Shown here one piece after another: positions 1 through 22,050 of a DNA stretch of 64,000 nt. The position numbers and the translations under genes are program-made. Source of the DNA: Escherichia coli (GTDB lineage Bacteria; Pseudomonadota; Gammaproteobacteria; Enterobacterales; Enterobacteriaceae); the NCBI RefSeq assembly GCF_016026235.1, contig NZ_CP065613.1. The stretch is one strand, 5' to 3'. Within the stretch, counting starts at the first letter, position 1. Every line of letters starts with the position of its first letter. Under the pieces are notes generated by a model. It saw only the letters and a list, made by a program, of their open reading frames with translations. It did not search any database and was not told where the DNA came from.

Positions 1-113
1 TGCGCACCAGTGTTATTCGTGGATTTAGTGCCGTAATCAAACGACGATGTGGTTTTCGTCCCCAAATCCGTACTGGATGCGCTGGCGCTGTGGGTATGCG
101 ATTTAATGCCGTC
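1..113 (-). other. Distal continuation of stf reading frame after in-frame TAG; runs off the window start
   Basis: Same frame as stf stays open for 37 codons after the TAG at 114-116 and translates [37 protein letters not shown], matching the distal part of lambda Stf as I recall it. Confidence 0.7.
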
Positions 114-2693
114 CTATTCCTGAGACAATACGGCCCGACCACTGGTAGGTTTGCCCTTAATCGTCCAGCCACGCATATCAGGGATCACGCCTGACGGATA
201 AGCCGCTGCAAGTTTCGGGTATGCAGATTTGTCAAAAGTCTGCCCCTGCATCAGGGCATAGCCAGACGGAACGGTATCTGATGGCCACGGGATTGGTGCA
301 CCGACTGGATAAAACTCTGCAGGAGGATGAGCCGAGGTGTAAAGCTGCGCCCACGGCGACCAGTTTGCGTCGGTCGTATCCCGTCGTGAACGAATAAATG
401 CCGGAGCATGAGCACCGCTTGTACCACTCCAGCCGATGAGTAACTCACCTTCGCCAACGGCTGTCATCCCTTTCAGGTGAATGATATTTCCATACGCTGT
501 TGGATATCCGTTGTTATACACCTCGTATAACTCAAGACCTGTTGCCCCCTGCGTATTGTCTGTCAGCGCGGTTACCCGACCTTTTGAAGACAGATTAACT
601 GATGATACTGCTGTTCCACCTGACGGTAACGCCCCGATCTCTGATGCCGTTGGCTTATTTCTGGAGTTATAGTCCCTTCGCCAGCCAGGTGAATAATCTG
701 TTCCGTGATTAATATAGGTAAACTGGGCGTTAGTTGTTCCACCACCAGTGGAGGTGGTCGGTGTGGTAATGCGGATCGTCATCGCTGACTTTATCCCCAT
801 TACTTCAATGACAGCTCCGGCGAGATGAATATTACCGCAGTCAGTATCAGTAATGATTTTATTATTGCCATAAGACCAGGAACCCTTGCACATCCAGTAG
901 GGATGGTTAAATGCTCCCTGAGAATCCAGCCACTCGATAAACTGTGCAGTCGTCCAGTTTCCTGTTATTGTGCTTACTGACCCACCAAAGGCACGGCAGG
1001 CACCAATATTTTTCGTAAAGGTGTCTTTGCCAGGGATATCCGCACCGTTCTGATCTTTCTGCAGACGTTTCTCAGCATTGTCATAGGCTGTTTTTACTGC
1101 CTTTGGTGTCGCGGCAAGCGTTTCAGACGTGCTGTTGGTCGCGCTGCTTAGCTGGATTATCCCTTTCTGTGCTGTCGTTGCATCCTGTGCGGTGTATTTC
1201 CCGTTAGCCAGGTCATACGCGGCCTTAACGGCTTTTGGTGTTGCCGCCAGTGACTCGGAAGTGCTGTTAGTCGCACTACTGAGCTGTACTATCCCCTTTT
1301 TCGTCGTGCTCGCATCCTCAAGCGCCACAGCGGATGCAATATCCTCTGCCCGTTTTGCTGCTGTCTCGGCGCGCGTTGCTGCGGATTCTGCCGTACTCTT
1401 GCTCTGTGCTGCCGCCGTCGCACTGCCAGCAGCCTCTGTTGCCTTCGTGGATGCCGTCGTGGCGCTGCCCTTCGCTGCTGACGCTTGTCTGGTCGCCTCA
1501 TCTTTTGAAGCAGACGCCGATGAGGCCGATGACGCCGCCGAACTGGCGGACGATGCGGCAGCCGTTTTTGAGGATTCTGCGCTGGTTTCCGACGCTTTCG
1601 CGTTCGTTTCGGATGTCTTCGCTGCGGAAGCTGACCTCGCTGCTGCGCTGGCCTGTTCAGTGGCTTCGCCAGCCTTCGTTGTGGCTGTTGAAGCGGATGA
1701 TGCGGCGCTTTCTGCCGATTTTCCGGCGGCGATGGCACTGGCTGAGGCCTGCCCGGCACTTGTTGACGCGGCACTGGCAGACGACGCAGCCGCTGTTTTT
1801 GAGCCTGCCGCAGCTGAGGCGCTCTGTCCCGCTGCCGTCTCAGAAGACCTGGCGTTCGTCTCGGACGTTTTTGCCGCCTTCGCGGAATTTGCTGCCGCCG
1901 TTGCCGAGGAAGCTGCGCTACTGGCGCTCGAGGATGCGTTCGTTTCTGATGATTTTGCCGCCTCTTTTGAAGCCGACGCATCCTGGGCTGAGGTGGCAGC
2001 TTCTGACGCTTTCGTAGTCGCGGTGGATGCAGAAGTGGCTGCTGATTGTTGTGACGCTGCAGCATTCGTTTCTGACGTTTTCGCGGCACTGGCACTGGTA
2101 GCTGCCGCGCTTTTTGAGGACTCTGCAGCGGCAGCACTTTTTGATGCTTCAGTGGCCTTTGCTGATGCCGTTCCTGCGCTGGAAGACGCTGACTGAGCCG
2201 ACGACGCGGCCTGTCCGGCTGACGTGCTGGCTGCGCGTGCTAAGCCTGCAGCATCAGTTGCATGGGTTGCCGCCTCACGGGCTGATGTGCCGGCATCGCT
2301 GGCTGACTTCTTCGCGGCTGCTGTGTTCTGTGCCACCGCGGACGCGTTACGCGCCACCTCTTCCACCATCAGTTCAAAACGTCGCAGTGCCTCCGGACGG
2401 GCATCATCCTCCGTCATGGCACCGAGAAAATCATTCAGCGTACCGGGTTGAGAATCTTCATACACGGTGATGGTCCCGGCATGTGACGGCGGGAATCCTT
2501 CCACCAACAGAATAACGCTGTACTGACCGTACTCAACGTCCATGCTGTAACGCCCGGCTTCATCCGGATTTTCTGAGGCCAGCGTGTTCACCACCACCGC
2601 GGTGCTGTTACGTTTTGCTTTCAGCTGGATTGTGCAGTTCTGTACCGGTTTTCCTGTGCCGTCTTTCAGTACACCTGAAATCTTTACTGCCAT
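114..2693 (-). CDS. stf: Side tail fibre protein (lambda Stf / StfR-like), ending at an in-frame amber codon
   Basis: ORF 114..2735; likely start at the internal Met ([27 protein letters not shown]), which matches the lambda Stf N-terminus; long Ala/Ser/Thr-rich repeat region and conserved [41 protein letters not shown] block. Confidence 0.9.
1150..2200 (-). repeat. Degenerate tandem coding repeats (AAKTSETNA...-type) inside stf
   Basis: Repeated [16 protein letters not shown] motifs in the translation; the GC-rich low-complexity DNA produces long overlapping shadow ORFs in other frames. Confidence 0.6.
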
Positions 2694-2756
2694 ATTCACC
2701 CCACAAAAAGCCCGCCTGAACCAGCGGGCTGTCATAACACTGTGTTACCTGGCTAA

Positions 2757-3356
2757 TCAGAACTTATAACCGACACCCACGATGAAACCGTCAGTGCGCC
2801 AGTCGCCACTGCCGGAACCTTCATAAGCAAGGTCAATGGCCACGGATTCGGTCGGGTTAAACTGCACGCCAGCTCCCCACGCCAGAGACGTGTTGCTGTG
2901 GCGACCGTCATCACTTCCGGTCAGCACGTCGTGCGTTTTCCCCTTGTTGTCAGTTACGCGGAGATAATCCCCGGAGAAAGTCGACACACGGCTGTAAGCC
3001 ATACCCGCCATCGCATACGCGCTGAACCATTCATTCACGCGCACAGACGGCCCCACCATCACGCTGAACCAGCGGTTACGCACGGAATCTTCATGCCAGC
3101 GGGTATCGCTGTAACGGGTAAGCTGGCGATTCTTGTCTCCTGCATAGCTGAATGACGTCACCAGCCCCAGTGTGTCCGTAAACTCATAACGGTATTTCAC
3201 GTTAATCCCGTTAAGATCATCGCTGCCGGGAACGTTCGTCGAGGCATGAAGATACCCCGCGCTCAGCGTGGACTGATGTTCAGATGCCCATGCAGGCGCA
3301 CCGGATACGGCCAGACAAATGGCTGCGGACAAAATGGCGGCATAAAGTTTACGCAT
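2757..3356 (-). CDS. lom: Outer membrane protein Lom (Ail/Lom/PagC family), prophage moron
   Basis: 199 aa with signal peptide; C-terminus [23 protein letters not shown] matches lambda Lom; located between J and stf as in lambda. Confidence 0.9.
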
Positions 3357-3425
3357 AATTACCTCTCGCTTTTCTGCAATAAAAAAGGCACCATTTCTGG
3401 TGCCCTTATATGGGTTATAACAATT

Positions 3426-6838
<3,413 letters not shown>

Positions 6839-6895
6839 TCACGCTCCATAAACGACAAAACCGCCCGGAGGCGGTTTCACATAAAACGTTTTTCA

Positions 6896-7543
6896 TCAGC
6901 GACCAATCACCACAACCTGACCACCATCCCCTTCGTCTGCCGTGCGGATCTCCTGAGAGACCACCCGCGACCCCACGCGCATTTCACCGTACAGAACGGG
7001 CAGAACATTGCCCTGGGCAACCATGTTATCCAGTGAGGAGAAATAGGTGTTCTGTTTGCCGTTATCTGTACTTGCTGCCGTGGGCGTCCTGGCTTTCGGT
7101 GCCAGCATCTGCGCCACTCCGCCCAGGATCATACTGGCCCCTGCCGCATACATGCCCGATACAGCCGCGGCACCCAGCCAGCCCACAGGGTTCCACCATG
7201 CCACCGCAATCAGCGCCACCCCCAGCACCACCTGAAACACACTGCCACTTTTAGCTCCCGCCAGACGCGGCACGATGTGGATCACGGCACCATTTGCCAG
7301 CGGCTCATTAAGACGGGCAGACAATTCGGTTTCACCTGCATCACGCCCGGCAATGCGTACCTGGTACCAGCCGTCGCTCAGTTTCTGACGAAACGCCGGG
7401 ATCTGCATGGCCAGCGCCCGGATGGCTTCGGACCCCGTTTTCACTCGAAGGTCGATGCGGCGGCCAAATCGTTGTAAATCCCCGTAAAGGCAGATGCGTG
7501 CCATGCCCGGTGACGCCAGAGGGAGTGTGTGCGTCGCTGCCAT
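6896..7543 (-). CDS. I: Tail assembly protein I (lambda gpI-like); true start probably an internal Met
   Basis: Position between K and J; C-terminal hydrophobic segment; the annotated start overlaps K by about 100 bp. Confidence 0.75.
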   Translation of the reverse strand: MAATHTLPLASPGMARICLYGDLQRFGRRIDLRVKTGSEAIRALAMQIPAFRQKLSDGWYQVRIAGRDAGETELSARLNEPLANGAVIHIVPRLAGAKSGSVFQVVLGVALIAVAWWNPVGWLGAAAVSGMYAAGASMILGGVAQMLAPKARTPTAASTDNGKQNTYFSSLDNMVAQGNVLPVLYGEMRVGSRVVSQEIRTADEGDGGQVVVIGR

Positions 7544-8193
7544 TTGTCGGTGTACCTCTCTCGTTTGCTCAGTTGTTCAGGAATATGGTGCAGCAGCTCG
7601 CCGTCACCACAGTAAATGGCGGCATGATTCGGCACCGATGAACCAAAACAGCACAGCAGCACATCGCCCGGCTGCGCCGCTGACAACGGCACCTGATACA
7701 GCCCTGTGGCCTCCAGATTATCCAGATAGAGATTCTGACCGTTACGCCACCAGTCATCCTCGCGATGAAAATCCGGCATCTCAATCCCCGCCAGATGGTA
7801 AGCATCCCGGAACAGCGTGTAACAGTCCGTCACCCCGTGCTCAAAGCGCCGCCCGGAAAGATGTGGCACACAGCGGAACTTGTGAATCGCCCCCCGGCAA
7901 ACCAGCCACCACGGCAAATCACTCTGCACCTGCAGCCGCCGGTCGGTCTCACTCAGCCAGGGCAGACCACCGGGGTGGCTGTGGACCAGCGCCACAATCT
8001 CACCCTGCATCTCTGCCCGCAGCCAGTCCTCCGGCGACATCCGGAAATACTCCTCCGGCTCACCGGAGATATTCACGCAGGGAAAATATCTTTCCCCCTC
8101 CGGTGTTCTCACCACGAAGCCGCACGACTCCGCTGGCGCACATCGCCGGGCGTGCGCCAGAATCGCTGATTCTGTCTCTGTCATGGGATTCAC
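7441..8193 (-). CDS. K: Tail assembly protein K (JAB/MPN + NlpC/P60 domains)
   Basis: HSHPGG JAMM-type motif and downstream Cys/His peptidase region; start overlaps the L stop by 4 bp. Confidence 0.8.
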   Translation of the reverse strand: MNPMTETESAILAHARRCAPAESCGFVVRTPEGERYFPCVNISGEPEEYFRMSPEDWLRAEMQGEIVALVHSHPGGLPWLSETDRRLQVQSDLPWWLVCRGAIHKFRCVPHLSGRRFEHGVTDCYTLFRDAYHLAGIEMPDFHREDDWWRNGQNLYLDNLEATGLYQVPLSAAQPGDVLLCCFGSSVPNHAAIYCGDGELLHHIPEQLSKRERYTDKWQRRTHSLWRHRAWHASAFTGIYNDLAAASTFE

Positions 8194-8888
8194 TGCGAAA
8201 GTTTGTTAATGGAAAGGAAGCCGCCAAAGTTGCCGACGTTATTGCGAAACTTACAGCCGCTCAGGCATTTGCTGCATTTATCCTTCGTGATATCGGAGGT
8301 CGGCTGGTCATATTCATCCGCGACCGCCGGACCGTGATAACCGCACTCATCACCGCGATAGGTCCAGGTGCAGGTATTAGCCAGCATGATGCGCCCCGGA
8401 AAAACAGCGCCGTCCGTTTCCGTCGGCGTGGACAGTACAAAAGAGGCACTCACCGCGCTCAGTTCGCTGCACTGCTCGATGCGCCAGCGGCTGATCACCT
8501 CCTGCTCCGGATCGGCGTCACTGTTTCCGTTGACGAAGTTCACCGCATCCAGAAAACGGGCGTAAACCTTACGCCGGACCACCGTTCCTCCGACCAGACT
8601 CTGCAGGTCTTCCGCCATCCCGGTGACCATGCCGTGCAGGTTAGAAACCGTCAGTGTCGGACGGGCAGCACTGCCTTTGCCGTTCAGTTCAAATCCCGTC
8701 CCCTGAATGGGATACGCCTGATACTGTCGCCTCTGCCAGGTGACCGGCTCACCTTTATCGTTCTGCTCATTACAGAAAAAATAACGCTCACCACCGACCT
8801 CTGTCAGATCGATTTCCCAGAGCTCCACCCGGACTGACTGCTCCGCACGGGTGCATTCATTCAGTGTTTCCTGCCGGATATCCTGCAT
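8190..8888 (-). CDS. L: Minor tail protein L
   Basis: 232 aa, same length and position as lambda gpL; Cys-rich C-terminus. Confidence 0.85.
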   Translation of the reverse strand: MQDIRQETLNECTRAEQSVRVELWEIDLTEVGGERYFFCNEQNDKGEPVTWQRRQYQAYPIQGTGFELNGKGSAARPTLTVSNLHGMVTGMAEDLQSLVGGTVVRRKVYARFLDAVNFVNGNSDADPEQEVISRWRIEQCSELSAVSASFVLSTPTETDGAVFPGRIMLANTCTWTYRGDECGYHGPAVADEYDQPTSDITKDKCSKCLSGCKFRNNVGNFGGFLSINKLSQ

Positions 8889-9217
8889 CAGTTCACCACC
8901 TGTTCAAAATCGGCCGTTACAGTCACCCATAACGCCCCCACGCTTGCCGACCATTTACGACAAACCACCCTGATCGGTTTCCAGTCATAAGGTGGCGTCC
9001 ACTGAAATGCGCGGACGCCACCGTGCCGTTCCAGAAAGGCTTTTAAAGATGGGTGTTCACATTTACGAACACGTATCGTCACGCTGTAAATCGACAACTG
9101 GTTATTCAGTCCCGCCGCACGACGCTGTTCATAACCATCGCCCAGCTTCACTGTCACCACTTTCGGCTCTGATACCACATTCATATCCGGGCGCACTTTC
9201 CAGTGAAACGTCTCCAT
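8888..9217 (-). CDS. M: Minor tail protein M
   Basis: 109 aa, same length and position as lambda gpM. Confidence 0.85.
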   Translation of the reverse strand: METFHWKVRPDMNVVSEPKVVTVKLGDGYEQRRAAGLNNQLSIYSVTIRVRKCEHPSLKAFLERHGGVRAFQWTPPYDWKPIRVVCRKWSASVGALWVTVTADFEQVVN

Positions 9218-12200
9218 TACCGATATGCTCCACTTAACCGACCACCATCACGGGCCTGCTGTTGCATAAAGTCCGCTGCCGCTTTTTTCCCAAGGTCATA
9301 AACCACCTTCAGGGCAGCCGGACCTATCTGCCCGTTCGTGCCATCGTTATTGATCTCGATGTTGTACTGCGGGGCAAACATCGCCATACCTGAACCACCA
9401 ATATCCGCCACAACCCCCAGCTTACCGTCAGCACCACGACGCAGTGGCAGAATGGCTTCAGGTCCAGCTTCCCCCATCACACCCGCGCCTTTTGCAAAAG
9501 CAAAAAACGTCGGACGGTTAACCACCGTGCCACTGTAACGACTCAAATCAGCAGACTGATAAATCCCCCCATTGGCATTCAGGGAAAGGCTGCTGAGATC
9601 AAATCCCAGTACACTGCCAATCCCTTTTATCGATTTCATCATGGTTGCCTGCGCCAGGATTTTCGCCATATCTGACAGCACCGAAGAGGTGAAGGATTTG
9701 AAGTTGAGTTTGCCGGTAGTGACAAAAGTTGCCAGGCCATTTCCCATGTTGCTGAAGGCTGATGAGAACACCTGTTCTGCTGTTCCTGCCGTATTGTCTG
9801 CATCCACGGTAAAATCCTGAAATGCACGCAGGACTCCGTTTTTCCAGTTACCCTGCACAACTTCAAGCTGTTGCCAGTAACGGCGATTCTCATTCAGTTG
9901 TCGGTTCAGGCTCTCCGTCAGCGCCTGCTCGGCCTTTCTGTAGTCATCCGTGTTATATGTCCCTTTCTGCTCACTATCCCGCCTCAACTGCTCCAGCTGT
10001 TGCTGGTATTTCTGGCGAAGACTCAGTTGTACCTGATATCGCTGCCGCTGCTGATCACCCATACCCACCGTGGCGATATCCAGGTCATGTTGCTGACGCT
10101 GAGCGCGCTCTTCTTCAGCCAGTTGACTGGTCAGCTGAATTGTTTTTTTCTTCAGATCGTTGAGTGCCGTTTGTTTCTGAAGCTCCTGCTGTTTTACATC
10201 CAGCAGCGTCAGTGCCTGAATCAGCTCATTCTTACGGGCCAGCACACTCTTTTCATCTGCCGTCAGCTTTTTCCCGTCCAGGTCGCTGATGCGCTGCTGC
10301 AGGGCCAGAAGCTGTTTATGCGCTTCAGTCATCCTTTCAGTGGCAATGCCTGCTGACTGTCTTGCAGCAGCAATCTGTCCTTCCACCTGTGCCTGTTGCT
10401 GACTGTACTGCAGCAATAACCGGGTGGCCTCATCATTACGGGTTTCGCGTGTTTTTTTCTTACCGGATGCCAGGGCTTTCTCGTAACGTTCATTTTCACG
10501 TTGTATCGCCGCATCCCTGACAGCCTGGTCGGCGTACTGCATGGCATTAATACGCGCAATTTCACGCTGATGTCGTGCTGCTTCCGTTTCATTCATCCGG
10601 TTCAGTGCAGCATTTTCAGCATTACGTCGTTTCTGTTGCTCCTGATAATTCCGCTCTGCCTGCTCTTTTGCATCCTGCAAATCCTTCTGGCGTTTTTTCT
10701 CCTGAAGATCGTTAAGACGCTGCTGATCGTATTCAACCTGAGAAGATGATGCCGTCCAGGGGAGTCTTTTCGCCCGCGACACTTTCTCCTGTAAAGCGGT
10801 AATCTGTTCATCCAGCGAGTCTTCACGACCAATATTCATGGCCGCATCCCAGAAACGACTCCACAAATCAGACAGATACTTCAGCGTACTGCCAAGCGCA
10901 TTGAGGTTATTATCAATATCCGCAGTACGCCGACCGGTTTCCTCTGCCAGTGCAGACATGGCTATCCGTGCAGCATCACTGGACCGTCCCTGATCCCCAA
11001 GGACACGTATCTGCTCAAGCTGAGTGGCAGTAAGAAAATGCAGCTCATTGTCCAGAGCCTTCGCGGCATTTACAGGATCATCCTTCAGCCGCTTAAACTG
11101 ATTTATGGTATCGCTGACCGACTGGCCAACCGATCGCTCCATCTGTGCGGCAGCTCTCGCCACCATACCGATATCGTTTCCACGAAATGCACCACTCCCC
11201 ACCACCTGCGCCAACGCACCGGCTGCAGCATGTTGCGTGATACCATTCCCGGAAATAGCACGACTGAGCGTCCACAGCTGCCCGGCAGTGACTCCGGCAT
11301 AATGCCCCGTCAGCGACAACTGGCGGTTAAATTCTTCCCCCTCCTTCTGACCGTCATACCAGGCTTTACCCAGACCATAGACGGCCGCGGCAATACCGCC
11401 AATAACCCCGCCAAGCATCATGCCTTTCGGTGACATCAGTGCGCCTGTCCATCCGGCACGGTTAGCCAGCGTTATCCCGGATCCCCTCAGCGCCCCTAAA
11501 TTGCCGCGGGCCAGTTCACCTATCAGAACGCCTATCTCCTGGCGGGCTGCTGCACTTTTCAGACCCAGCGAATGCGTGGCTTTTCCTGCCTGCTCCATTT
11601 TGCGGATATACACTTCTGCAGCACTGCTTACCCCCAGCTGGGCTGCCCTGGCGCGAAGCAACTCAGAAGATGAAAGATTCTGGCGGGTTGCCTGCTCTTT
11701 AAGCTGACGGATAAACGCCACTTTCTGTCGGGTAGCCTCTTCCTCAGCCTGTGTAAGAACACGGGTTTTCGCAGTAACCTCAGAAATCAGCGCCAGATAA
11801 TCCTGCTGACCAATCCCGCCACTGTTTCTGGCCTGTCGGATCTGCTGCTGAATACGCTGTAATTCCTGCAGCCCCGCACTGGCCTGTTTCACACTGTCAA
11901 TCTGACGATAAAACGCAGCAGCCGCTTTATCCTGAGCCTCCGCCAGAGCCATGGCCTGCGCCTGTTCCTCGCGCATTTTCTGGCTCAGCGCCTCCATGCG
12001 CTGGCGGGTTTTCTCCACCTCGCGGGCCATGCGTTCATGAGCCTGTGCGTTCTTCTCCACCGTCTGCGCATGGACGGATGCGGCTGTTGCAGCCGAAGAA
12101 GCCGCCTGCGTTGTCTGCCGGGCGGCCTGAGTCTGACGCTCCATAAAACGCTGCATACGGGCAGAAGACCGTTCTGCATCGCTGGCTGCACCATTCAGAA

Positions 12201-12312
12201 GGTTTTTGATACGGGGAATTTCATTTTTAAACTCTGCCGCATCAATCCCCAAATCAATGACCAGGTTGGCTATCTGGTCCATAACGCACACCTCCGGAAA
12301 TACCTTCCCCAA
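9217..12312 (-). CDS. H: Tail tape measure protein H (start possibly at 12282)
   Basis: About 1030 aa, coiled-coil-rich, Gly-rich C-terminal part ending NNDGTNGQIGPAALKVVYDLGKKAA... similar to lambda gpH. Confidence 0.9.
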   Translation of the reverse strand: MGKVFPEVCVMDQIANLVIDLGIDAAEFKNEIPRIKNLLNGAASDAERSSARMQRFMERQTQAARQTTQAASSAATAASVHAQTVEKNAQAHERMAREVEKTRQRMEALSQKMREEQAQAMALAEAQDKAAAAFYRQIDSVKQASAGLQELQRIQQQIRQARNSGGIGQQDYLALISEVTAKTRVLTQAEEEATRQKVAFIRQLKEQATRQNLSSSELLRARAAQLGVSSAAEVYIRKMEQAGKATHSLGLKSAAARQEIGVLIGELARGNLGALRGSGITLANRAGWTGALMSPKGMMLGGVIGGIAAAVYGLGKAWYDGQKEGEEFNRQLSLTGHYAGVTAGQLWTLSRAISGNGITQHAAAGALAQVVGSGAFRGNDIGMVARAAAQMERSVGQSVSDTINQFKRLKDDPVNAAKALDNELHFLTATQLEQIRVLGDQGRSSDAARIAMSALAEETGRRTADIDNNLNALGSTLKYLSDLWSRFWDAAMNIGREDSLDEQITALQEKVSRAKRLPWTASSSQVEYDQQRLNDLQEKKRQKDLQDAKEQAERNYQEQQKRRNAENAALNRMNETEAARHQREIARINAMQYADQAVRDAAIQRENERYEKALASGKKKTRETRNDEATRLLLQYSQQQAQVEGQIAAARQSAGIATERMTEAHKQLLALQQRISDLDGKKLTADEKSVLARKNELIQALTLLDVKQQELQKQTALNDLKKKTIQLTSQLAEEERAQRQQHDLDIATVGMGDQQRQRYQVQLSLRQKYQQQLEQLRRDSEQKGTYNTDDYRKAEQALTESLNRQLNENRRYWQQLEVVQGNWKNGVLRAFQDFTVDADNTAGTAEQVFSSAFSNMGNGLATFVTTGKLNFKSFTSSVLSDMAKILAQATMMKSIKGIGSVLGFDLSSLSLNANGGIYQSADLSRYSGTVVNRPTFFAFAKGAGVMGEAGPEAILPLRRGADGKLGVVADIGGSGMAMFAPQYNIEINNDGTNGQIGPAALKVVYDLGKKAAADFMQQQARDGGRLSGAYR

Positions 12313-12978
12313 GATGCATCAGTTCTTCGTCCGTTCGCTCCGGTATCCCGTTCTCTTCCGGTAAAAGGCTGAAATCAGCCACCGCAGCATCACTGCTGCC
12401 GGACACCATTCTCACGATCAATGCCTTCAGCGAGGCAAACTGCGCATCCATCCACACATCACTGAAGCTCTGCATCCGGAAATAATCGCCCCACTCACCA
12501 AGCTCAGTGGCCGACATTTCCGACAGCATCCGCCGCCAGTCTGCCCGCCTGAACTCCCGGGCAAGCCGCATGACAAACTGCATTTCCCGCGTCAGGACTT
12601 TTCCGGCGTCAGCACCTCATGCTCCAAATCCCCGGCATTCTCAATGGCTCCCATACCGCTCAGCGACAGAACCATCTCCGCCCCCGCTCCCAGGGCATCA
12701 TACGACCATGTTGTAATAACGGATGCGCAAAGCGTCTCAACATCCTGAGACTGTTCCGCATTCCACAGTGAGCGGGAAACCAGCCAGGCATTGATATCCA
12801 TCCCCATCCGTAGAAAAGCAATCTGTCGTTCAGCCTCCGGCAGTTCTCCCTCTTCGGCATCAAACTTTGCCGTTCGCTGCTGAACAAACGCCAGATATTC
12901 AATTCTCTGCAGCCCGGACAGCTCACTGAGCACCACGGACTGCTTTTCATAATTAAACGTGCCCTGTTTCAGAAACAT
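12254..12978 (-). CDS. Tail assembly chaperone G-T, expected to be made by -1 frameshifting near the G stop
   Basis: The -1 frame is open across the G stop (…AGKVLTREMQFVMRLAREF…) and continues as ORF 12254..12583. Confidence 0.6.
12592..12978 (-). CDS. G: Tail assembly chaperone G
   Basis: Starts MFLKQGTFNYEK like lambda gpG (MFLK...); lies immediately upstream of H. Confidence 0.8.
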   Translation of the reverse strand: MFLKQGTFNYEKQSVVLSELSGLQRIEYLAFVQQRTAKFDAEEGELPEAERQIAFLRMGMDINAWLVSRSLWNAEQSQDVETLCASVITTWSYDALGAGAEMVLSLSGMGAIENAGDLEHEVLTPEKS

Positions 12979-13037: not shown

Positions 13038-13669
13038 TTAACCTGCGGCGCTGACAGCCACCGTAGCCACTGCCACAAAATCGCCGTCAGAAGTCATGCC
13101 CACAATGCTGACACTGCCCTGCTTCACGCCTTTCACCGTGGCAGTCTGTGGATCTGTCGAATGCACACTGATCGCTTTGTCACTGGCTCCGTCAGGTTTT
13201 ACTGTAAAGGTCAGCGTGGTGGTTGCTCCCGCTTTGACACTGGCAGATGCCGGTGCCATCGTCAGCCCGGTAACGCCCACGATTTCAGTGCCTTCCTCTG
13301 CCAGATACGGAAAACATCAACAGTACCGTTGGGATATTTGATACGAAAAGCGCAGACTTCACCGGAGTCGAACAACTGAACCAGTTTTTTCTGCCCGCTG
13401 TCCCCCGGACGCCAGGCCAGCGTCGCCGAAGTATCACCGACTGATTTCTGCCCCTGGGTTGTCGTTTTCCAGTCTGCATCTTCATCATCGAGATAAGTGT
13501 CATCTTCTGCATCAGCGGTCATTTCGCCAGGTTGCAGATCCTTCACCATCGCAAGACGCAGCCAGTCAGTGTCCGATAAAGGGTTCGCAAACGCATCGCC
13601 CTTGCCGGTATACATCCAGAACGTCGTTCCCGCACCTTTCGTTTTTGCCAGTGGATTTGGTGTGGTCAT
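13038..13669 (-). CDS. V: Major tail protein V, split into two overlapping frames (13262..13669 and 13038..13280)
   Basis: N-terminal part [20 protein letters not shown]...NGTVDVFR resembles lambda gpV; the Ig-like C-terminal domain ([24 protein letters not shown]...) is in another frame. Confidence 0.8.
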
Positions 13670-13679
13670 TACCACCTCC

Positions 13680-14093
13680 TTAATTCGTGTACGTGATCTG
13701 GTACGTGATTTCCGCCATCGCCCAGGTGGCCATCTCATTATCACGTTGATAGTTAAAACCGAGTGGGATCAGGGTGTCGATGAGTCCGGAAAGTGCTGGT
13801 ACATCATTCAGGGCCGGGAAAATGGTGCTCTCCATCCACATATCCAGCTCTGAATCCGGTGCCTGTGCCCGGATGAAGACAGCAATATGCAGAACAGCCT
13901 GCCAGTCATCTTCATCCGTCATTTTTCCGGTGTACTGAGCATCACTCAGCCACACCGCCACGGCAGGCAGTTCCTGCGCATCAACAAATGCCGGAAGCCC
14001 GTCAAAAAACGTGGCGCTGTCTCCACACTGTTCCCGAAGGCGTGCCAGTACGACCTGGCGGATTTGTGTATGTCGGTTCATCGGGTCAGCCAT
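13680..14093 (-). CDS. U: Tail tube terminator protein U
   Basis: ATFFDG...AVAV...PDSELD.WMES motifs similar to lambda gpU. Confidence 0.8.
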
Positions 14094-14656
14094 AACCTCA
14101 GTTGTTGTTTCAGTGCATACCCCAGCTGTTTCGGCATTTCCGCAGCAATGATGCGGTCGCGGGCATCTTCAAATGTCTGTGTCAGCGGTCCGGACAGCGG
14201 GATTTTCACCACATCAATGGGGTAACGATTTTTGCCATCAATACGCCGCATCACATGCCAGCGACCATTCGCCAGTTGCTGAATAAACGCATCCCGGAAA
14301 AGATATTTACCCACCTTCAGCACACTGCCACGGTACTGCAGTTTTCCACCACGCCGGGCCAGTCTGACCCGGGCTGTCCCCAGCTTAATGGCAGGCAGAT
14401 TGCCCCGGTTAACGCGGATCCTGGCCGTCATTTTTCCTGACGGACTGGCTTTAAACACCCGGACACGCTGACGTACCAGTTTCAGGGGGATCCCTTTCAC
14501 CTGGTTATCTCCCGCAACGGTATTCCCGGCAACCTGCCGGGTGGCAACCGAGACCGCTTTCTGTGCCACACGGTTTATCGCCCATGCGCTGGCCTGTGGC
14601 ACCATACGGGTATCAAGGCTGTTCAGATTGCGGATGGCATTCTCAAGCCCCTTCAT
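14078..14656 (-). CDS. Z: Minor tail / tail completion protein Z
   Basis: 192 aa; RWHVMRRIDGKNRYPIDVVKIPL and C-terminal KQLGYALKQQLR resemble lambda gpZ. Confidence 0.8.
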   Translation of the reverse strand: MKGLENAIRNLNSLDTRMVPQASAWAINRVAQKAVSVATRQVAGNTVAGDNQVKGIPLKLVRQRVRVFKASPSGKMTARIRVNRGNLPAIKLGTARVRLARRGGKLQYRGSVLKVGKYLFRDAFIQQLANGRWHVMRRIDGKNRYPIDVVKIPLSGPLTQTFEDARDRIIAAEMPKQLGYALKQQLRLWLTR

Positions 14657-15345: not shown

Positions 15346-17057
15346 TTACGCCGTACATTTCACCAGACCGCGGTGATCAACTGGCGCGACACCGGCGTCA
15401 ATACGCACTTTCGTTGTCACGCCATCCACACTGAAGCCCTCCATCTGATCAATATATGGCGTATCCACACCGTTGAGATAAGCCACTTCAATCGTATCGG
15501 AGCCTTTTGACGCAGCCAAGTAGAAGGTGGTCTGGCTGTTATCATCAAGACGAGGCTCTGCAATAACGGTCGCAAAATCTTTCACCGGGTTAATAATACC
15601 GGCGTTAATGTCAGCCCCCTTGACACTTGAGGAGCGAATGACCTGGTTAGCAACAGACTCCATCGCCGTCGGTACCAGTACGAACGCAGGACGAATATTC
15701 AGATGACGCTCCCCCTCTTTCTGAACGCGCATCAACTGGCGGGCTTTATCCAGCGATGCCACGTCCATTGCAGCGCTCTCCAGTACGTTTGCATGTTTCG
15801 CTTTATCGAACAGACTTACATTATCTGTGGAGATTTTCGGGTTAGACGTCAGAATGGCATAAACCAGATCGGCAATAGTGGATTTCGCCGCACGGCCCAG
15901 TTTCATCGGGACATCGGTCAGCATATTCAGATCATCATTGATAATGGCCTGACGGGTGATACTGAACAGCTCGCCATAGGTCGCCAGTGCAATAGTGGCC
16001 TGTTTATCTCCGGTGGTGACGTATTTATATTCCGCCCCTTCACGCACCTGACGCAGAGCACTGAAGCCCCCCATACCCACACGATGGGCAATTTTAAAAT
16101 CAGACAACTGACCTTTCCGCGTCCACTGTTCATAGGTTTCAGGGGCATCTTCCCAGCCCTGCAGAATGGCTTTGTTCGCAACATCCAGCAGAATATTACC
16201 GAAGTCAGACGTACTGTGTGTGAACGCCGCACCGACCATCTGCATCGGGTTATAACCGGAAACCCCAATACCCCGTTCAGTCAGTGACATACGGGCATAT
16301 TCACGCAGGGTCATCCCGTTGTAGACATTATCACGTTCGGTTTTTTCAAATCCGGCACGCGCCATCAGCGCCTGGCGGATCCCGTCCCCCACAAAATTAC
16401 CGTTACCGGCATAAATATGAGCCGGGGTATTTTTATTGGATGGCGTGGACTCGCGCCCCATCTCGTTCAACAGCTTTTCACGGGCCTGCTCCAGCGAACA
16501 TTCAGGATCGGCAAGACACTGAGCCTGCAGCGTCTGATAACGCCCGCCAAACATGGCAAACAGATCATTAATACCGTTTACACGCGCTTTTTGCTCTGCC
16601 AGTACCTGCGCACGGATGCTGTTTTCATCCACCACGGGTGCTGCTGCCTGCACTGGCGTCCGGGAGGCTTCAGATTCATTATCCTGTACGCGTGGAGCAC
16701 TGTTGCGTGGCGGAGTAATCATGTTTCGAATGGATTCCGGCATCTTTTTAAATTCCTCTGTACGTTTTGACTGAATACATGCCATTGCCTTAACGGCTGG
16801 CGTTACCTGATCAGCAAATCCATGTGCCAGACATTCGGCACCGGACATCCAGGTCTCATCCGCCAGCATGGCAGCAATTTCATCGGTGGTTTTCCCGGTT
16901 TTCTGTGCATAAGCGGGTAACAGAACCGCCTCAACTTTATCGAGCAGGTCGGCATAGGTGCGCATGTCCTCCGCATCACCGCCCGTAAAGCCAAATGGTT
17001 TATGAATCATCATGAAGGTGTTTTCCGGCATAATGACCGGGTTTCCTACCATCGCAA
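15346..17057 (-). pseudogene. Prohead protease / major capsid protein fusion (HK97-fold), 5' end cut by IS600-like element
   Basis: N-terminal part looks like the C-terminal half of a ClpP-like prohead protease, followed by a capsid-like domain; the frame runs directly into the IS end at 17058. Confidence 0.75.
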
Positions 17058-17100
17058 TGAGGTGTACTGGCAATAGCGGACACTACCATTTGTTCTTTTT

Positions 17101-17919
17101 TTAAGCAGCCATCTGATGATATTTTTCCCTGAAGGCTGCCGGGGAGATATTCCCCAGACGAGAGTGACGACGCTGACGATTGTAGAAAATCTCAATGTAT
17201 TCCCGTATTACTGAGATGGCTTCATCCCGGTTATTAAAACGATAGTGGCTCAGGCTCTCATTTTTCAGCGTTCCCCAGAAGCTTTCCATCGGAGCGTTGT
17301 CGTAACAGTTACCTTTACGCGACATTGATGTTTTCAGACCAAACTGCTCCTGTATGACCCGGTAATCGTATGCGCAGTACTGTGAACCTCGATCAGAGTG
17401 GTGGATTAGCCCGGCAGGTGGGCGCTGGCTCCTGAGCGCCATAAACAGGGCTTTACCTGTCAGCTCTTTTGTCATGCGCTCTCCCATGGCGTAGCCGACA
17501 ATTTCGCACGTATAAACATCTTTGATGCCAGCGAGGTACAACCATCCCTCCTGTGTGGCAACATACGTCAGGTCCGCCACCCAGACCTGATTTGGTGCTG
17601 TAGGAGCGAACGTCTGGTTCAGCAGATTTGGCGCAACTGGCAGATTGTGGTTCGGGTTCGTAGTCGCTCTGAACTTGCGTTTCTGCTTACAGCGTAGCCT
17701 TAGCTCCTTACGAAGACGTGCCAGTCGGTCACGACCAACGATGATGCCATTCTCTGCCAGCTCCGTCTGGAGCCGCCGGGTTCCATATGTTTCGCGAGTG
17801 CGGATATGTGCCACCTTAATCTCCAGTTTTAGCCGCTCATCACTTTGTTTTCTGTCTGAGGGTTCATGCTGTACCCAGTTGTAATAACCGCTCCTGGATA
17901 CACCAAATACCTGACACAT
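17101..17919 (-). CDS. IS3-family transposase OrfB (DDE integrase-like catalytic domain)
   Basis: 272 aa with HSDRGSQY and later E; the -1 frame joins orfA to orfB through an A7 run (about 17995-18005). Confidence 0.9.
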   Translation of the reverse strand: MCQVFGVSRSGYYNWVQHEPSDRKQSDERLKLEIKVAHIRTRETYGTRRLQTELAENGIIVGRDRLARLRKELRLRCKQKRKFRATTNPNHNLPVAPNLLNQTFAPTAPNQVWVADLTYVATQEGWLYLAGIKDVYTCEIVGYAMGERMTKELTGKALFMALRSQRPPAGLIHHSDRGSQYCAYDYRVIQEQFGLKTSMSRKGNCYDNAPMESFWGTLKNESLSHYRFNNRDEAISVIREYIEIFYNRQRRHSRLGNISPAAFREKYHQMAA

Positions 17920-17954
17920 CGCTTCAATGGGAAATTGTTGTCGCCATTGTTCGA

Positions 17955-18257
17955 TTAACGCGTATTTTTCAGCGACTCCTGTGCAAAATACGCTGTTGCT
18001 TTTTTTAATATATCTCGCTCAAGGCGAGCTTCATTTAACGCCTTACGCAGTTGCAGAATTTCAGATTCCAGTTCAGCCACCGTGCGGGAGCCAGGAGTAC
18101 CGAGCCCTTTTCTGGCGGCGGTAACCCATTGTCCTAAAGTGCCTTCAGGAAGGGATAATCGGGAAGCGCCTTCACTGATCGAAAGTTGATTTTCAAGAAC
18201 CGTTCTGACAGCTTCGGCTTTGAACTCTTTAGAGTAACGTTGGGTTTTTCTGCTCAT
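17955..18257 (-). CDS. IS3-family transposase OrfA (helix-turn-helix)
   Basis: 100 aa, MSRKTQRYSKEFKAEAVRTV..., typical IS3-family OrfA. Confidence 0.9.
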   Translation of the reverse strand: MSRKTQRYSKEFKAEAVRTVLENQLSISEGASRLSLPEGTLGQWVTAARKGLGTPGSRTVAELESEILQLRKALNEARLERDILKKATAYFAQESLKNTR

Positions 18258-18439: not shown

Positions 18440-18691
18440 TCAAGTAAGATGACGTCTTGGTCTTGCTGATGCCTGGCGCTCAATCCAGCGATCAATTTCT
18501 TCCAGGTTGTAAAAGCATGGACTGTTATCCCATGGCATACCGTCATGAGCGACATGCTTATATTCCCTTCCTTCCATAAACGATTTTTCCCGGGCCTTTT
18601 TTAACGTACCTTTTTTTATTCCTTTCAGCGCAATTAACTGCTCTTCGGATACCCATTTGCCGGGAGAGACAATCATGATTACTTCGCTCAT
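18440..18691 (-). CDS. Putative excisionase-like protein
   Basis: 83 aa, immediately upstream of the int remnant on the same strand; assignment mainly by position. Confidence 0.5.
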   Translation of the reverse strand: MSEVIMIVSPGKWVSEEQLIALKGIKKGTLKKAREKSFMEGREYKHVAHDGMPWDNSPCFYNLEEIDRWIERQASARPRRHLT

Positions 18692-18904: not shown

Positions 18905-20198
18905 CTGAGGAATCCCCAGAAAACAAGACAGGCATAGTGAGATGTGATCTAATTGATTGTGCTAACAATTTCAAGGAGATCACCACTATGCCTGCACGTT
19001 CATTATGCCAAAATTTCCTTAACAACATACTGGCCCCTTTGCATCTTTACCGTCAAAAATCACTGATTGACGCAACTAATGCTGTAATAAATGGCGCTTC
19101 CCTCACACTTACCAGTATCGGGCGTCATTTAACCGGTACGGCATCAGTTAAAAACAAAATAAAGCGGGTGGATCGACTGTTGGGGAATCGACATTTGCAA
19201 AATGAGGTTTCCACCATTTTTCAGCGAATTACCCAAAAGATTACGCGGGGAATGTCTCGTGTTGTGATACTCATTGACTGGAGTGCTTATCATGCCTCTC
19301 GTTTTCAGCTTTTGCGGGCAAGCCTGGCATGTGACGGGCGTTCTTTACCGTTGATGAGTTGTGTCGTTCCATCATCACAGACAGCGAATGCAGATGTACA
19401 TGAGCGTTTTCTGGAATCGCTTGCTGAGTGCTTTTCCCCCGGGACTGATGTCATTGTTATTACAGATGCCGGTTTTCAGGGGCGATGGTTCCAACAGCTC
19501 CGCTCCCGTGGCTGGACCTATATTTGCCGGGTACTGGGCAATCATTATTACAATGTTGGTAATGGCTGGGAAAAGGTGTCGGACTCAGGCACAAAAGCAT
19601 CAACGACAGCAATTTATTTAGGTGAAGGCCTGCTGGGTCGAGATAAAAATGCACAACATGAAGGGCATTTTTATCTTTATAAAAGTAAGCCTAAAGGTCG
19701 TAGATTTAAACGCTCGAAGGAAAGAGCAACCAGACCATCGGTGACGGCTAAAGCTCGTACTGCCGGGAAATCACCATGGTTTATTTTCACAAACAGTACT
19801 GAGTTCTCGCCAAAACAGGTAATGAAATTATACAGCCGTAGAATGCAAATTGAGCAAAATTTCAGGGATGAAAAAAATCCTCGCTGGGGATTTGGACTAC
19901 GGTTTGGTGCCAGTCATTCATCCGGGCGGGTCACGGTATTGAGTCTGATCGCAACATTAGCCAGTATCATTATGTGGTTAAGCGGTTTCAGCCTGGAAAA
20001 CAAAGGGATACATCATAAATATCAGGCAAATACAGTGAAGCACAGGCGAGTCATCTCGTTATTAAAACTGGCGGAGAATGTGATTCGACATTCTCCACTC
20101 ATACTAAACACACTGTCACTTGACGCAGGGCTGAAAGTTCTACAGCAACGGTATACCAATATGATAATGGTTTACTAAATTTTCTGGGGATCCCTCAG
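18905..20198 (+). mobile_element. IS4-family insertion sequence, IS10-like, copy 1 (1294 bp)
   Basis: Terminal inverted repeats CTGAGGAATCCCCAGAAAA (left) and CTGAGGGATCCCCAGAAAA (right, reverse complement), resembling IS10 ends; single transposase ORF; no 9-bp direct repeat in the flanks. Confidence 0.85.
18988..20178 (+). CDS. IS4-family (IS10-like) DDE transposase
   Basis: ATG at 18988 preceded by AAGGAG; motifs KRVDRLLGNRHL, ILIDWS, VITDAGF and YSRRMQIEQNFRD align with the IS10 transposase DDE residues. Confidence 0.85.
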   Translation: MPARSLCQNFLNNILAPLHLYRQKSLIDATNAVINGASLTLTSIGRHLTGTASVKNKIKRVDRLLGNRHLQNEVSTIFQRITQKITRGMSRVVILIDWSAYHASRFQLLRASLACDGRSLPLMSCVVPSSQTANADVHERFLESLAECFSPGTDVIVITDAGFQGRWFQQLRSRGWTYICRVLGNHYYNVGNGWEKVSDSGTKASTTAIYLGEGLLGRDKNAQHEGHFYLYKSKPKGRRFKRSKERATRPSVTAKARTAGKSPWFIFTNSTEFSPKQVMKLYSRRMQIEQNFRDEKNPRWGFGLRFGASHSSGRVTVLSLIATLASIIMWLSGFSLENKGIHHKYQANTVKHRRVISLLKLAENVIRHSPLILNTLSLDAGLKVLQQRYTNMIMVY

Positions 20199-20824
20199 CA
20201 GTCAGCCCCGCTCTCTTTCGCTTTTTCCAGTCGTTCATCAATGCGATCGGCAACAATCACATTTTTAACGTTATAGACGCCTTTTAATACCTGAACGATC
20301 GTCAGGCCGATTGGACCGGCACCGTAAACCAGAACGGTATCATTTTCAGTCGGTTGACCATGGCCGGTTACGTTAGCCGCAATGGTAAAAGGTTCGATCA
20401 TCACCGCATATTGATCGGCCACTGCTTCAGGAATTTTCCACGCATTTTTTGCCGGAACCACGGCATATTCACTGAAACCACCGTCAGCGTGCACACCTAA
20501 TACAGCCAGTGTCGTACAAACGTTCGGTTTACCTATAGAGCACGGATAGCAATGCCCACAGCTGACCACCGGATCGACAGCAACACGTTCACCGACTCTG
20601 GCGCTTTCCACACCTTCACCCACCGCATCAATGACGCCAAAGAATTCATGTCCAATGACGCGCGGATATTTCGCAAAAGGATTATGCCCACGATAAATAT
20701 GGCTATCTGAACCACAAATTCCGGCAAGTTTCACTTTTACTCGTACTTCACCCGCTGACGGGGTGGGTATTTCACGTTCGACAATCGCCAGTTGATTCGG
20801 TTTTTCAATTAATATGCTTTTCAT
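20199..20824 (-). pseudogene. rspB: Starvation-sensing zinc-type dehydrogenase RspB, 3'-truncated by IS10-like element
   Basis: N-terminus MKSILIEKPNQLAIVEREIPTPSAGEVRVKV... matches RspB; reading frame ends in a TGA supplied by the IS terminus after about 208 of roughly 339 residues. Confidence 0.85.
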
Positions 20825-20835
20825 TATCTTACTCC

Positions 20836-22050
20836 TTACCAGTTCCACAGCGTGCCATCTTCCAGACGTGCGACTGGTAGATAAGCAGGTTCATAGGGAT
20901 ATTTCGCCGCCAGCTTTTCATCGAATTCGATGCCAAGACCCGGTTTGTCTCCCGGATGCATATAGCCGTTATCGAAAGTCCAGTTGTGCGGGAAGACTTC
21001 GAGCATTTGTTCGGAATAACCCATGTATTCCTGGACACCGAAATTGGGGACCCACAGATCAAAGTGCAGCGCTGCAGCCATGCAGACTGGTGACAAATCG
21101 GAAGGACCGTGTGAGCCAGTACGTACCTGATACAGCGAAGCAAAATCGGCAATCCGGCGCATACCGGTAATTCCGCCTGCATGGGTCAGCGTGGTGCGGA
21201 TATAATCGATGAGTTGCTCTTCAATCAGTTGTTTGCAGTCCCAGATGCTGTTGAAGACTTCACCCACTGCGATGGGTGTGACGGTATGTTGGCGAATGAG
21301 ACGGAAGCATTCCTGGTTTTCCGCAGGCGTCGGGTCTTCCATCCAGAACATGCGATAATCTTCAATGCTTTTACCAAAGCGCGCCGCTTCAATAGGCGTT
21401 AAGCGATGGTGCATGTCATGCAGCAAATGTTCATTAAAACCAAACTTGTTACGTACCGCGTCAAACAATTTCGGCATGAAATCGAGGTATTTCTCCGTCG
21501 ACCACAGCTGCTCTTCCGGCCACTGTCCTTTGGTTGCGGGTTCATAAGCCAGACCTTTACCTTTCGACATGCCGTAGGTGGTTTTCATACCAGGGATTCC
21601 GCACTGCACGCGGATGGCTTTGAATCCCAGCTCCTGATGACGGGCATAATCATCCAGAGCTTCATCAATACTGTGACCGGTGGTATGGCAATAAACCATC
21701 ACCCCTTCACGAGACGCGCCGCCGAGTAACTGGTAAAGCGGCATGTTGGCAGCTTTGGCTTTAATATCCCACAGCGCCATATCAACCGCTGAAATGGCCG
21801 ACATCGTAACCGGACCGCGACGCCAGTAAGCACCTTTATAGAAAAACTGCCAGATATCTTCGATACGGTGCGCATCGCGACCAATAAGCTGCGGACAAAG
21901 GTGATCCTGCAAATAAGAGGCCACGGAAAGCTCACGTCCATTGAGGGTGGCATCCCCAAGGCCCGTAATACCGTCCTCAGTGGTGATTTTTAATGTGACG
22001 AAATTACGCCCCGGACAGGTAACAAAAACTTCAGCCTTTACGATCTTCAT
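20836..22050 (-). CDS. rspA: Starvation-sensing protein RspA (mannonate dehydratase / enolase superfamily)
   Basis: [40 protein letters not shown]...; 404 aa from the internal Met. Confidence 0.9.

Follow-up and report, generated by a model that had tools for sequence, protein, structure and literature searches.

Laboratory lambda PaPa carries, relative to Ur-lambda, a frameshift in stf that abolishes the side tail fibers, which are nonessential, bind OmpC, and speed adsorption (PMC12617516). A relative in structure is gp37 of T4, in which a collar-like domain (D10) is made up of residues 811–881 and 1010–1026 and the iron-binding needle (D11, residues 882–1009) is inserted in D10. Amber mutants of gp37 at S868, R870, and elsewhere in the needle have been isolated by screening sup− versus sup+ hosts (PMC6957217). 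T4 cannot do without gp37, whereas for lambdoid phages Stf is only an accessory. The cryptic prophages Qin and Rac of Escherichia coli K-12 carry members of the same gene set (stfQ/stfR, tfaQ, pinQ) and have decayed by deletion and IS insertion. K-12 Qin retains its cold-shock, lysis, dicB, and rel genes.

Here, we describe an stf gene at the edge of a 64,000-nt stretch of E. coli contig NZ_CP065613.1 (RefSeq assembly GCF_016026235.1); this whole stretch is referred to as the window, and positions are counted from its first nucleotide. The gene is a pseudogene of the lambdoid side tail fiber family and not a functional member of it. It belongs to the same family as lambda PaPa stf (orf-401/orf-314) and has reached the same outcome, in that a single small lesion abolishes the side fiber. 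However, the lambda PaPa lesion is a mid-gene frameshift in a viable phage, whereas the lesion here is an amber codon near the C-terminus (codon 860 of 1023) in a dead remnant. The protein is also longer (1023 aa) than that of lambda, owing to an extended Ala/Ser-rich shaft. The remnant occupies the same chromosomal site as its K-12 counterpart, with ydfJ interrupted, and shows the same kind of decay; unlike K-12 Qin, it keeps the whole tail block and none of the cold-shock, lysis, dicB, or rel genes. We thus regard the locus as a variant of the site of the cryptic prophage Qin. There is nothing new in kind about this locus, as both the gene family and the type of decaying element are already known.

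The stf gene and its premature stop

Within the window, stf occupies positions 1–2693 on the minus strand, comprising codons 1–859, an amber codon, and 37 further in-frame codons that reach the window edge. Translation starts at the ATG at 2693–2691 (MAVKISG...), as annotated in homologs. The TAG is codon 860 (114–116, minus strand) and reads cta on the plus strand. Minus-strand translation from 200 to 3 gives this one TAG and then the 37 sense codons (3–113). An earlier sequence-only reading of this DNA had given the same coordinates for the in-window gene, the same end of the frame, and the same open stretch beyond it, and all of these are borne out. It should be noted that an open run of 37 codons is expected by chance with a probability of ~0.17 in random sequence ((61/64)^37, our own estimate). 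The run is thus weak evidence alone, and it is homology and alignment that decide whether stf continues past the stop.

An intact homolog of 1023 aa has Pfam matches to phage_tail_N (residues 1–134), Phage_fiber_2 (462–546, two fiber repeats), and Collar (798–845). The match over residues 1–134, to the prophage tail fiber N-terminal, tail-anchoring domain (PF08400), has an E-value of 2.8e-71 in this homolog, and a precomputed PF08400 match is also on record for the exact 873-aa product described below. Over codons 1–859, the window Stf differs from the intact homolog at six amino acids. The gene order J, lom, stf, tfa is kept, with the first three genes in the window and tfa directly downstream in a sister assembly. 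The C-terminal frame that encodes the collar, needle, and tip in the Stf family is interrupted here by the amber at codon 860.

Comparison with intact genes indicates how the stop arose. It corresponds to one C-to-T transition on the coding strand (CAG to TAG, Gln860 to amber), at nucleotide 2578 of the 1023-codon gene. In alignments to E. coli SCU-316, phage mEp460_ev081, and lambda, the codon is CAG (Gln). Across the last 240 nt, the window and SCU-316 differ only in that the stop codon begins with T and the corresponding codon of SCU-316 with C; in the same 240 nt, mEp460_ev081 also has C at the amber base and shows one further difference, at column 3. Lambda orf-314, with 85% nucleotide identity to the stf region, has CAG at this codon (within ...TCTCAGGAACAGGAT...), as the sequence-only reading had stated. 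When gene nucleotides 711–3072 of the sister assembly L004 (see below) are compared with the intact SCU-316 allele, the amber base is again the only difference. As the amber is the sole change in 2.3 kb relative to SCU-316, the mutation is recent and a single-base event. Homologs of stf at the same locus are annotated as 1023-aa proteins. Judged by sequence comparison, stf does not end naturally here, and the stop is a genuine nonsense mutation of recent origin, which agrees with the single-base nonsense change that had been proposed from the letters alone.

The remainder of the gene can be read from sister assemblies. A 4.56-Mb contig of GCA_900449985.1 (L004) matches window positions 1–12734 with zero mismatches and one 1-base gap. 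Its stf frame of 1024 codons is interrupted once only, at codon 860. After the amber there are 163 intact codons and then a natural TAA that overlaps the ATG of tfa (TAATG), so that stf extends 379 nt past the window edge. The tfa gene (191 aa, Caudo_TAP) is intact and follows stf directly. A contig of GCA_902503985.1 (L005) matches the window with zero mismatches over 5.7 kb, the amber base included. A search for records identical to the 859-aa protein that starts at 2693 returned none, whereas the 873-aa ORF chosen by gene callers did match. The entry with this identical 873-aa sequence is STL95641.1 (“tail fiber protein [Escherichia coli]”), which derives from four contigs, including those of GCA_900449985.1 and GCA_902503985.1. 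Because separately deposited assemblies share the TAG, it is not an artifact of one assembly. The four amber-bearing contigs may, nevertheless, stem from repeated sequencing of isolates of a single strain, in which case they would not represent independent lineages.

The region past the window edge in L004 also contains, adjoining tfa, an intact gene for a Pin-type serine invertase (L004 positions 13787–14377). No second tfa or fiber-end cassette, no long inverted repeats, and no AAACCNNGGTTT core of a Pin/Gin-type switch were found in L004, and pin is an orphan recombinase there. A Pin-invertible alternative fiber end is ruled out, as neither a second cassette nor recombination sites lie beside pin.

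Rarity of the amber allele

When 5,426 complete E. coli genomes were searched with a 61-nt probe centered on the TAG, 2,161 of them gave matches, at 2,621 places in all. None of these was identical to the probe, and the best had one mismatch, as does K-12 stfR in the probe region. Megablast with the 61-mer alone could not strictly exclude a TAG accompanied by a second SNP. A follow-up probe of 45 nt was therefore used, in which every 28-nt megablast seed must span the T, and neither the complete E. coli genomes nor 50,697 phage records contained a match to it. Species-representative genomes, a set that does not include the source lineage, likewise lacked a 40-mer that spans the TAG. Given that there are no probe matches in the complete genomes and phages, the stop is private to a small strain group. 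As a private SNP, it provides a clean lineage marker for that group.

The surrounding sequence has a wide distribution of its own. Window positions 85–145, within which the amber falls, form an extremely conserved module junction shared by many fiber genes. With few mismatches at most, this 61-nt junction sequence occurs in up to four copies per genome and also at 38 plasmid places. The junction is reputed to be a recombination joint for the swapping of fiber tips, and its wide recurrence fits this role.

What the truncation removes

The C-terminal 230 aa of the intact homolog align to the T4 gp37 tip (PDB 2XGF, gp37 residues ~812–1026) with an E-value of 2.4e-85. This homology is accompanied by seven HxH motifs, as in the iron-binding needle of gp37, and all of them (positions 866–997) are downstream from the amber. 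The tip (head) subregion between the HxH blocks is divergent from that of gp37, and the alignment is gapped at query positions 187–220. Counted through the 2XGF alignment, Gln860 falls at about gp37 residue 877. The 37 post-amber codons in the window are the start of the region homologous to the D11 needle and include its first HxH motif (HTH).

If translated, the 859-aa product would thus be expected to end 5 residues short of the equivalent of the D11 needle, and it would be without the C-terminal strands by which the collar-like D10 domain is closed. Nothing of the needle or the receptor-binding tip would be present. By analogy with gp37, such a truncated Stf would probably misfold or fail to trimerize properly. 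A further predicted effect concerns tfa. Its ATG overlaps the natural stf stop, so termination 492 nt early may well leave tfa translation uncoupled from that of stf.

Transcription of the gene is also likely to be affected. On the minus strand at 2709–2730, between the lom stop (2757) and the stf start, is a strong terminator-like hairpin with a T-run behind it; read in the direction of the gene (2730–2709), it has an 8-bp stem with six GC pairs. With this hairpin just upstream, and with the late promoter and the Q antiterminator deleted, stf transcription is probably minimal.

The surrounding prophage remnant

The stf gene is part of a prophage remnant of roughly 21 kb at the Qin/ydfJ site. 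Downstream from stf, relatives and L004 have tfaQ, pinQ, ydfK, ynfT, and a truncated ydfJ, and the chromosome resumes at rspA/ynfA on one side and at ydfJ on the other. Many genes of the block are in good condition. Z, U, G, T, H, M, L, K, I, lom, tfa, and pin are intact, with 95%–100% protein identity to functional relatives; among them is lom (2757–3356, minus strand), which encodes an outer-membrane protein of the Ail/Lom family. The intact tfa, pin, lom, and most of the tail genes leave some room for a residual function of the block.

Other genes are damaged. The tail tip gene J (3426–6835, minus strand) is split by the loss of one base in a G5 run (G4 at 4029–4032), whereas in sister assemblies L004 and L005 it is intact (1136 aa, G5). 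The frameshift (4021–4034) reflects either slippage that took place very recently or a homopolymer error made in assembling the source of the window, and this part of the decay seen in the window could thus be an assembly error. The major tail protein gene V (13077–13669, minus strand) has lost 85 bp out of frame, which inactivates it, and a further 27 bp in frame. The former deletion is flanked by short TCCGT repeats and the latter lies between GCCACGGTGA repeats; both are classic slipped-strand deletions. The gene for a fusion of a ClpP-like prohead protease and major capsid protein (15346–17073, minus strand) is truncated at its 5′ end, covering profile positions 75–651 of 652. Some 74 codons (~74) are gone from its start, and the break adjoins an IS3-family insertion sequence (orfA and orfB; 17101–18257, minus strand). 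We take this element to be IS600, a name that is also used in the annotation of O121 matches.

Beyond the IS3-family element are an 83-aa ORF (18440–18691) with no family match, read as excisionase-like, and an IS4-family (ISEc60-like) transposase gene (18937–20178, plus strand). The latter abuts a truncated rspB (20195–20848) that covers profile positions 1–208 of 339. The deletion by which the remaining prophage genes were lost is bounded on this other side by the IS4-family element. The window prophage lacks genes for portal, terminase, lysis, replication, immunity, and integrase, as well as Q and the late promoter. Two related genomes are informative about what has been lost. E. coli F2_407_2_2 has an intact portal gene, terminase genes, and Qin-type genes upstream of the tail block and a partial integrase at the end, and its capsid fusion gene is annotated as frameshifted. 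FDAARGOS_943, the closest complete genome in the chromosomal flank (99.9%), has an intact ydfJ and no prophage, and it carries the same IS4-family insertion in rspB.

A functional, inducible prophage needs all of its genes for head, tail, lysis, regulation, replication, and integration, and of these only the damaged tail block remains here. With V inactivated, the capsid gene cut short, and no genes for portal, terminase, lysis, or regulation, no virion is possible; suppression of the amber is therefore irrelevant to phage production. The sequence-only reading had suggested either a fiber without its distal tip or one read through in an amber-suppressing host. The former stands to the extent that the product would lack the distal tip, given that the HxH motifs and the needle equivalent are downstream from the stop. 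The idea of a working, suppressor-dependent phage gene does not hold for a remnant that yields no particle.

Weighing of explanations

We consider the locus to be best explained by neutral pseudogenization, with a probability of about 0.9: a recent Gln860-to-amber change in a gene that no longer had a use, in the remnant of a defective lambdoid prophage that an IS-rich E. coli lineage carries at the Qin/ydfJ site. The amber would then be one among several independent inactivating lesions in an element reduced to a tail-gene block. Other explanations bear either on the stop itself or on its possible use. Natural termination at this position, in a family of short-fiber variants that end where codon 860 lies, is effectively refuted. 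Among complete E. coli genomes, the exact sequence is present at none of the 2,621 places matched by the 61-mer, the 45-mer is found in neither E. coli nor phages, the nucleotides past the stop match the coding region of intact genes with 100% identity, and homologs at the same locus have 1023 aa. No related stf gene ending naturally here was encountered in complete E. coli genomes or phage records. It is also very unlikely that the TAG is a sequencing or assembly error with CAG as the true codon. The G4 versus G5 difference in J, present in the same window and not in its sisters, does suggest that this assembly may contain errors. However, the stop is a substitution and not a homopolymer indel, and the truncated protein comes from four contigs in at least two separately deposited assemblies, with L004 and L005 agreeing at the amber base. 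A basecalling artifact of Dcm or Dam methylation was rejected by inspection, as the context (GGAATAGGAC) has no CCWGG or GATC.

If the stop is genuine, it might still be read through, by a suppressor of the supE or supF type in the host or by natural low-level UAG read-through, so that some full-length fiber is made. Neither the 163 downstream codons, nor the tfa chaperone gene, nor the stf/tfa overlap has been damaged, and the original codon was Gln, so that a suppressor inserting Gln would give back precisely the wild-type protein. The supE suppressor inserts Gln. We nonetheless regard functional read-through as highly improbable. No tRNA gene was found in the window or in the 22.6-kb and 15.6-kb sister loci, and a full-length fiber would have nothing to attach to, with V frameshifted, the capsid truncated, and the portal, terminase, lysis, and late-regulation genes deleted. 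The intact post-amber sequence is more simply attributed to a recent mutation (the sole change in 2.3 kb). Programmed read-through would leave a stop that is conserved in homologs, and this one is not conserved in those from complete E. coli genomes and phage records. There is, finally, the thought that the tail-only block has been domesticated, as an F-type tailocin-like particle or a surface-protein cassette, and that the short fiber is a selected variant with altered targeting. Most tail genes are undamaged, as are lom, tfa, and pin, the sisters have a complete J, and the block has no complete head genes, all of which would suit such a role. However, the gene for the tube protein, V, has its 85-bp out-of-frame deletion, there is no lysis cassette, regulator, or late promoter, and the truncation takes the whole receptor-binding tip, which goes beyond a specificity loop. 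In addition, the block boundaries are IS-mediated deletions typical of decay, and the allele is confined to four contigs. We consider domestication extremely unlikely. The same very low standing is given to the version in which the block is kept for host use (tailocin- or adhesin-like) and the amber yields a fiber that is deliberately tipless or, by low-level read-through that restores Gln860, occasionally complete. Were that version true, the fiber would be a natural suppressor-tunable receptor-binding protein.

Annotation

Under neutral pseudogenization, the gene matters little beyond its annotation, although it does provide another natural example, beside the lambda PaPa frameshift, of how easily a nonessential side fiber is lost. 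It should be labeled as an stf pseudogene with an internal stop, in a defective prophage, and not as a short “tail fiber protein” as in STL95641.1. Besides the premature stop, the start of STL95641.1 is probably wrong too. The corresponding 873-aa ORF starts at 2735, so that it overlaps the hairpin at 2730–2709, and this is not the start annotated in homologs. Several further ORFs of 227–355 aa (1129–2196, plus strand; 1289–2137, minus strand; 1334–2017, plus strand) lie inside the Ala/Ser-rich repeat part of stf, in other frames or on the opposite strand. These are most likely compositional artifacts, like lambda orf206b, which is annotated antisense to orf-401.
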